Shown here piece by piece: positions 16,427-16,624 of a stretch of 64,000 nucleotides of DNA. Each line of letters starts with the position of its first letter. Position 1 is the first letter of the stretch. The notes under the pieces were generated by a model, which was not told where the DNA came from, made no database searches, and saw nothing but the letters and a program-made list of their open reading frames with translations. The translations under genes were made by a program, and so were the position numbers. This DNA is from a phage: the sequence record PZ179880.1; one strand, 5' to 3'.

Positions 16427-16624
16427 CTAAGAATATGTAGAAGGATATTTGGCAAAGTTAGGCTTATATCCTAATTTAACCATTTGTTTTGCTTTGCGAG
16501 TAAATCCTAAAGAACGCTCACCTTTAAGATATTGTTTTGGTGTCATAGGCCCTTGATGCATCTGCCGACAAATAAAAAGGGCCATAGCATTAGGAACATC
16601 CTTAACTTTTAATTTATTGCTCAT
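16427..16624 (-). CDS. hypothetical small basic protein (65 aa)
   Basis: ORF inserted between frd and td; ATGA overlap with frd stop. Confidence 0.4.

Follow-up and report, generated by a model that had tools for sequence, protein, structure and literature searches.

In bacteriophage T4, the dihydrofolate reductase gene frd and the thymidylate synthase gene td are directly adjacent, and the ATGA overlap between them (AF158101 / NC_000866) was reportedly described by Purohit and Mathews in 1984. In phage T6, the slot between the two genes holds td.1, an uncharacterised ORF of 115 aa that is named in the T6 entry AY262134 (locus 39-386). A literature search on an ORF at the frd-td junction or on 'td.1' returned nothing relevant. 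Translational coupling of neighbouring genes has been described more generally. Coupled overlapping pairs are enriched for subunits of complexes (PMC6728339; PMC10666635), and in E. coli the loss of reinitiation is 5-70% at a distance of +2 nt, 40-80% at +14 nt, and almost complete at +38 nt (PMC10666635).

Here we describe the frd-td junction in a 64,000-nucleotide stretch of phage DNA (sequence record PZ179880.1; hereafter the window). The window phage belongs to Tequatrovirus, and no deposited genome is more than about 97% identical to it.

A small basic ORF lies exactly between frd and td

The first-pass annotation, which was made from the letters of the window, had pointed to a Lys/Arg-rich 65-aa ORF wedged exactly between frd and td, sharing ATGA with the frd stop and ending 8 nt before td. 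The coordinates confirm this arrangement, and the T4 alignment, in which frd and td have the ATGA in common, bears out the accompanying statement that the two genes are directly adjacent and overlapping in T4. The features of the locus are as follows.

17202-16621, minus strand: frd (dihydrofolate reductase), 193 aa; DHFR family matches; strong Shine-Dalgarno sequence (SD) AAAGGGG
16624-16427, minus strand: small basic ORF, 65 codons plus TAG; PHROG 9550 member, W66* allele of a 68-aa protein
16429-16427, minus strand: ORF stop TAG, a private nonsense codon; TGG (Trp66) in relatives, the changed base being 16428
16416-16426, minus strand: ancestral ORF tail ATG AAC TAA (codons 67-68 plus stop), from the sequence and the YUEEL01 alignment
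16418-15558, minus strand: td (thymidylate synthase), intronless, 286 aa; TIGR03284, E 5.9e-90
16372-16626, minus strand: exchanged cassette, comprising the small ORF and the first ~47 nt of td, from segment and sliding identity and from alignment
16621-16625, minus strand: AATGA direct repeat (5 nt), left copy, from the alignment with T4
16415-16419, minus strand: AATGA direct repeat (5 nt), right copy, from the alignment with T4

The ATGA at 16624-16621 is common to the TGA stop of frd and the ATG of the small ORF (overlap of -4 nt), and the TAG of the small ORF is separated from the ATG of td by 8 nt, ATGAACTA. The frd DNA is 94% identical to T4 frd, and the last ~60 nt of frd together with the ATGA are the same at the frd/ORF junction of the window and at the frd/td junction of T4. 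In T4, however, the cistron that follows frd is td itself, whereas 206 nt are interposed in the window. These 206 nt are missing from T4, and a deletion between the two AATGA copies reproduces the T4 junction exactly.

A consensus scan of the minus strand from 16400 to 16700, a scan that leaves T4 middle and late promoters outside its scope, returned no promoter-like or terminator-like site. The T4 late-promoter consensus is TATAAATA. The sequence at the frd/ORF junction (16621-16632, minus strand), TATAAATG, matches this consensus at 7 of 8 positions, and the same junction sequence is also present at the frd/td junction of T4.

The small ORF belongs to a narrow, phage-only family

The small ORF encodes a very basic protein, with 13 Lys and Arg residues versus 2 Asp and Glu residues, a pI of 10.3 and a net charge of +10.6. 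The protein matches PHROG 9550 over its full length (hmmscan, E 2.4e-42), with residues 1-65 aligned to profile positions 1-65 of 68. In nucleotide searches with a 451-nt junction query, at least 80% of the query was covered in 136 phage records, in which the ORF is labelled 'hypothetical protein', while tblastn placed the small-ORF protein in 238 phage records. Amino-acid identity is about 80% to the Marfavirus homologue, 68% to that of Kanagawavirus CIP9, 60% to that of Serratia phage 4S and roughly 40-43% to those of Phapecoctavirus, and full-length homologues of 68-108 aa are found in unrelated phage groups, Phapecoctavirus among them. Length differences among the homologues are whole codons, and dN/dS against Marfa, CIP9 and 4S is 0.08-0.28 (Nei-Gojobori). 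Judged by these comparisons, the small ORF is a genuine coding gene under purifying selection, already catalogued as a hypothetical gene.

At E <= 0.001, an exhaustive HMMER search of 1.84 billion cluster representatives returned 11 proteins. Ten of these are basic and 70-96 aa long; the eleventh is a tandem-repeat protein of 1,402 aa, whose score (E 1.3e-11) comes from six repeated 20-residue matches and which was judged a repeat artefact. PHROG 9550 is a narrow, phage-only family. Its norm is a length of 68 aa, a C-terminus reading YSWMN and a TAATG stop/start overlap with td. The family motifs are M-S/K-N/G-K-x-K-V at the N-terminus, V-P, L-x-I/L-C/A-R-x-x-H-Q, K-G-x-x-S/T-x-G-F, M-x-x-L-G-Y-x-P, and Y-S-W-M/F at the C-terminus, and the window ORF carries every one of them except the C-terminal W-M, which is removed by the private TAG.

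Two labels in public records deserve mention. In JS98 (NC_010105, 144216-144419) and JS10 (EU863409, 145284-145487), an intact 68-aa ORF with 98.5% amino-acid identity is present and unannotated, and in one GenBank record the small ORF is named 'flagellar biosynthesis protein', an obviously spurious label.

The structural model of the small-ORF protein depends on the depth of the alignment. An AF2 prediction from 19 close sequences is poor (pLDDT 60), while that from 34 diverse homologues has a pLDDT of 86 and comprises three helices at residues 13-24, 29-39 and 43-49. Residues 61-68, the block that includes the C-terminus lost in the window, have a mean pLDDT of 86. No meaningful match came from Pfam and NCBIfam scans of the small-ORF protein or from a Pfam scan of 34 family members, a sequence profile search of the PDB gave 0 matches at E <= 10, and comparison of the folds gave no match to the small-ORF model. 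PHROG 9550 can be flagged as an orphan family of small basic proteins, with a confident predicted fold, no relative found, and members unannotated in JS98 and JS10. A homing-endonuclease remnant (GIY-YIG, HNH; seg/mob) was considered and rejected: profile searches gave no endonuclease or linked DNA-binding domain, and the conservation pattern refutes it.

A private nonsense codon shortens the ORF and removes the SD of td

The YUEEL01 allele differs from the window by a single base over the ORF and is identical across 65 codons. The YUEEL01 ORF ends TAT TCT TGG ATG AAC TAA TG and encodes 68 aa. The window ORF thus stands apart from its PHROG 9550 relatives in encoding 65 aa rather than 68, in having no TAATG overlap with td and in having no GGA upstream of td. 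All three differences sit at the same codon. The change of TGG to TAG also turns the weak SD GGA into AGA, and the 8-nt gap and the loss of the sole weak SD of td are both due to it. In the window, the TAA of the ancestral tail still overlaps the ATG of td as TAATG, and immediately behind the TAG, ATG AAC TAA makes up a mini-ORF of two codons in the same frame.

With a 70-nt probe across the TAG site, 0 of 133 phage records were 100% identical. Furthermore, the exact 37-mer containing TAG was found 0 times in IMG/VR, versus 3 times for the TGG version. The 65-aa length and the 8-nt gap are, on the records compared, private to this window, the relatives having 68 aa and TAATG. Trp66 is kept across most of the family, including the Phapecoctavirus homologues, and residues 61-68 are confidently modelled, suggesting that the truncated protein may be impaired.

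The strength of each SD was taken as the anti-SD duplex energy over the 20 nt before the start codon, with the following values.

frd start: -7.3 kcal/mol, strong SD
small-ORF start: -3.5 kcal/mol, weak GGA, equal to the T4 td context
td start, 68-aa relatives: -3.1 to -5.5 kcal/mol, GGA of the Trp codon, 7 nt upstream (YUEEL01, -3.1)
td start, T6 type: -4.0 kcal/mol, UAAGG, uncoupled
td start, window: +0.4 kcal/mol, no SD
ORFs of at least 100 aa in the window, as comparison set: median -5.6 kcal/mol

The first-pass remark that td has no obvious SD accordingly holds for the 20 nt upstream of its start, and its cause is the private TGG-to-TAG change.

The junction is a variable slot with three alleles

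Three arrangements of the frd-td junction are found in Tequatrovirus, as counted in phage records, the T4-type count resting on a 45-nt probe that matches the contiguous junction alone. The empty T4-type junction is the rarest (about 32 records, many of which are T4 itself), the small-ORF allele is present in about 132-136 records, and the td.1 allele is the commonest (about 363 records, T2, T6 and G4507 included; locus 1239-1650 in G4507). YUEEL01, SHFML-26, fPS-90, ACG-C40 and about 130 other Tequatrovirus phages have the same gene at the same position and with the same ATGA overlap with frd as the window. T4 does not carry the ORF, yet it is annotated in more than 100 close T4 relatives. 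The premise of the first-pass annotation, that the ORF departs from a norm represented by T4, accordingly does not survive the counts: a real extra ORF does sit at the T4 junction point, but it is nothing unusual, being a common, annotated gene that directly precedes td in at least five genera, and the T4 form is the rarest. The T4-centred view is thereby corrected, in that within its genus the textbook frd/td overlap is exceptional and the junction a variable slot with three alleles. The practical value of these findings is modest, and they leave the present understanding of T4-like phages unchanged.

The product of td.1 is unrelated to that of the small ORF (BLASTP against ABI48938, 115 aa, E = 12), and td.1, unlike the small ORF, overlaps neither of its neighbours. 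In T6/T2-type phages, td.1 is followed by a TATAAT-like box and then by the UAAGG SD of td, and td starts 45 nt past the td.1 stop. In the BW-1 record, td.1 is labelled 'putative glucose-1-phosphate adenylyltransferase', which is probably spurious.

Outside Tequatrovirus, the small ORF lies directly 5' of td in Dhakavirus, Marfavirus, Kanagawavirus and Serratia phage 4S too, giving at least five T4-like genera. It is placed directly upstream of td with a stop/start overlap in YUEEL01, Marfa, CIP9 and 4S, the overlap being TAATG in Tequatrovirus, Marfa and 4S and a 4-nt stop/start in CIP9. The gene order is frd-X2-small ORF-td in Marfa and 4S and frd-X1-X2-small ORF-td in CIP9, where X1 and X2 denote ORFs of 111-126 aa that fill the interval from frd to the small ORF (locus coordinates: CIP9, 1826-2504; Marfa, 2143-2496; 4S, 2124-2504). 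Identity to td.1 is 45% for CIP9 X1 and 24-31% for X2. The X ORFs form a family with T6 td.1, and CIP9 has two paralogues in tandem. The small-ORF DNA is 68-79% identical to its counterparts in Marfa, CIP9 and 4S, which is similar to the 70-72% of td and fits co-descent of the two genes. Since the X1-X2-small ORF arrangement of CIP9 holds homologues of both Tequatrovirus inserts, it suggests differential loss. The simplest reading of these comparisons would be that the small ORF has long occupied this slot and that the Tequatrovirus alleles arose by differential losses.

The cassette has been exchanged between genera

The small-ORF DNA is 97-98% identical to two JS98-type Dhakavirus contigs, while the flanks are far less similar to the same contigs (frd, 78-81%; td, 74-81%). 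The near-identical tract runs from the frd stop to ~47 nt into td. The difference between ORF and flanks indicates that this cassette was exchanged recently between Tequatrovirus and Dhakavirus. When the first 300 nt of td are compared with JS98 as a single segment, they show only about 79% identity.

The first ~16 codons of td (16372-16418, minus strand) travel with the cassette: they read MKQYQFLIKDILENGY in the window and JS98 and MKQYQDLIKDIFENGY in T4 and G4507.

Nothing in the window corresponds to the T4 block of ~1,017 nt (T4 locus 4548-5564) in which the td group I intron and I-TevI lie. YUEEL01, a close relative, has both the small ORF and the td intron. Co-conversion by I-TevI was rejected as the driver of the JS98 exchange, the tract ending ~47 nt into td, far short of the intron site.

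Geometry of a possible translational coupling

frd, the small ORF and td lie on the same strand, with nothing promoter-like or terminator-like between them in the consensus scan, as is the case for coupled pairs. Their spacing, -4 nt for frd/ORF and +8 nt for ORF/td, falls within the -8 to +10 nt range of PMC10666635. The locus resembles known coupled pairs (Huber et al. 2019, PMC6728339; PMC10666635) in being co-directional, in having overlaps of -4 and, ancestrally, -1 nt, and in having a weak or absent downstream SD; it differs from them at the second junction, which is at +8 nt here.

Coupling by the unmasking of a structured td ribosome-binding site was considered and rejected, there being no stable hairpin. 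Specifically, a fold of the 120 nt that surround the td start has an MFE of -11.7 kcal/mol (z = 0.22), the start is unpaired in the centroid, and no structure that masks it was found. Because no masking structure is present, any coupling would be by reinitiation, and the 8-nt gap lies within reinitiation range according to the distance data of PMC10666635. Coupling of td to the small ORF by termination-reinitiation is plausible on this geometry. The first-pass suggestion that ATGA, followed by a stop 8 nt before td, has the geometry for coupling stands in that it fits termination-reinitiation; what does not stand is the gap without an SD as a general property, which is private to this phage, the norm being TAATG with GGA.

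The coupling geometry is in itself unremarkable, since overlaps of -4 or -1 nt (ATGA/TAATG) occur in 23 of the 98 same-strand neighbour pairs of the window (24%). At such a frequency, compaction of the genome, and not selection for coupling, could account for the overlaps. Moreover, td in general does not need the small ORF, because td of the T6/T2 type has its own UAAGG SD. For the window allele, W66* amounts to a natural single-base 'experiment', which removes the weak SD of td and at the same time turns the -1 overlap into a +8 gap, and which could be used to gauge the dependence of td on reinitiation.

Preferred explanation and alternatives

We consider it probable that the small ORF is an accessory PHROG 9550 gene in a variable frd-td slot, with a probable hand-over of ribosomes across it and with a TGG-to-TAG change private to this phage. 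This gene of T4-like phages encodes a 68-aa, very basic (pI ~10.3) protein of 7.9 kDa predicted to form three helices, and the alleles of its slot in Tequatrovirus, namely empty (T4), small ORF, and unrelated td.1 (T6/T2), would be swapped by recombination in the conserved flanks. Lying inside the frd-td transcription unit, the small ORF takes its start from the 3' end of frd and from the ATGA on which td begins in T4, and its ordinary stop overlaps the td start (TAATG); termination-reinitiation would most probably carry ribosomes from frd through the ORF into td. In this phage, the TGG-to-TAG change removes the last three residues, the conserved Trp included, and moves termination to 8 nt before the td ATG. 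Translation of td would here rely on short-range reinitiation, on SD-independent initiation on the open AU-rich leader, or on both, and, more speculatively, the AUG-AAC-UAA mini-ORF might relay ribosomes to td.

The part of this explanation that faces the most serious competitor is the hand-over of ribosomes. td could instead be translated independently, with the 30S subunit loading on the open AU-rich leader in an S1-assisted, SD-independent manner and the proximity of stop and start reflecting compaction. The AU-rich leader, the unstructured td start, the frequency of overlaps in the genome, and the about 363 Tequatrovirus records in which td is uncoupled, 45 nt after the td.1 stop and with its own UAAGG, are all consistent with independent translation. 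But the window td has no SD of any kind, and every small-ORF lineage keeps the stop/start overlap with td, even where the overlap sequence differs, so that we regard independent translation as possible but somewhat doubtful. Whether the 8-nt gap is natural depends in turn on the TAG. If this codon were a sequencing or assembly error or a mutation of laboratory propagation, the real gene would be the 68-aa TAATG allele, as the absence of TAG from all 133 phage records and from IMG/VR, the otherwise complete identity to YUEEL01 and the conservation of Trp66 in most of the family would lead one to expect. However, the adjoining genes nrdA (754 aa), td (286 aa) and frd (193 aa) are all unbroken, have their canonical lengths and give no sign of poor assembly, and single nonsense changes are common in dispensable phage accessory genes; an artefactual TAG is therefore considered unlikely, though it retains some weight.

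Two further alternatives concern the origin of the ORF. It could have been inserted recently into a direct frd/td junction that was ancestral and T4-like, rather than being a gene deleted in T4. The cassette evidently moves laterally (98% identity against 78% in the flanks for JS98-type phages), and the AATGA repeats fit insertion and deletion alike. Against a recent insertion, the gene lies at the same site, with divergence like that of td, in Marfavirus, Kanagawavirus and Serratia phage 4S, the empty junction is limited to 32 records, from T4 and a few phages closely related to it, and the richest arrangement, X1-X2-small ORF in CIP9, includes homologues of both inserts. We hold this origin to be rather improbable. 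Still less credible, to the point of deserving next to no weight, is that the ORF is a chance frame, or a remnant of a homing endonuclease or intron, with no functional protein. Such an origin might be suspected from the shortness of the ORF, from its nearness to td, which in T4 has an intron and I-TevI, and from the spurious flagellar label, yet it conflicts with purifying selection on the ORF, with full-length homologues of 68-108 aa in unrelated phage groups, with the confident compact AF2 fold and with the absence of an endonuclease or any other Pfam domain. Furthermore, the ORF is independent of the intron, YUEEL01 having both and the window having the ORF alone.

Possible role of the small basic protein

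Distant homologues, in phAPEC8 and three metagenomic phage contigs, sit among small hypothetical genes and not beside td, and no recurrent neighbour was found among these four. The linkage to td is thus synteny within T4-like phages and not a functional link that holds for the whole family. Given the net charge, our working guess is that the protein may be a nucleic-acid- or host-factor-binding accessory, made with the early/middle nucleotide-metabolism genes. A bolder proposal, which we rate as a long shot, is that the ORF and the first ~47 nt of td form a discrete cassette, with sharp ends by AATGA, that is actively spreading between Tequatrovirus and Dhakavirus in both directions, and that its orphan-fold, three-helix product acts on td expression or on the enzymes of deoxynucleotide synthesis. 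If true, such a role would explain why the ORF has stayed attached to the start codon of td in five genera while other ORFs nearby appear and disappear.

A second interval upstream of the junction differs from T4 as well. About 510 nt between frd.1 and frd (17223-17734, minus strand) have no T4 counterpart, and this block contains or overlaps two ORFs, of 81 aa (17202-17447) and 111 aa (17456-17791). The same pair of ORFs is present in YUEEL01 and G4507, and the frd.1-frd interval looks like another variable slot.
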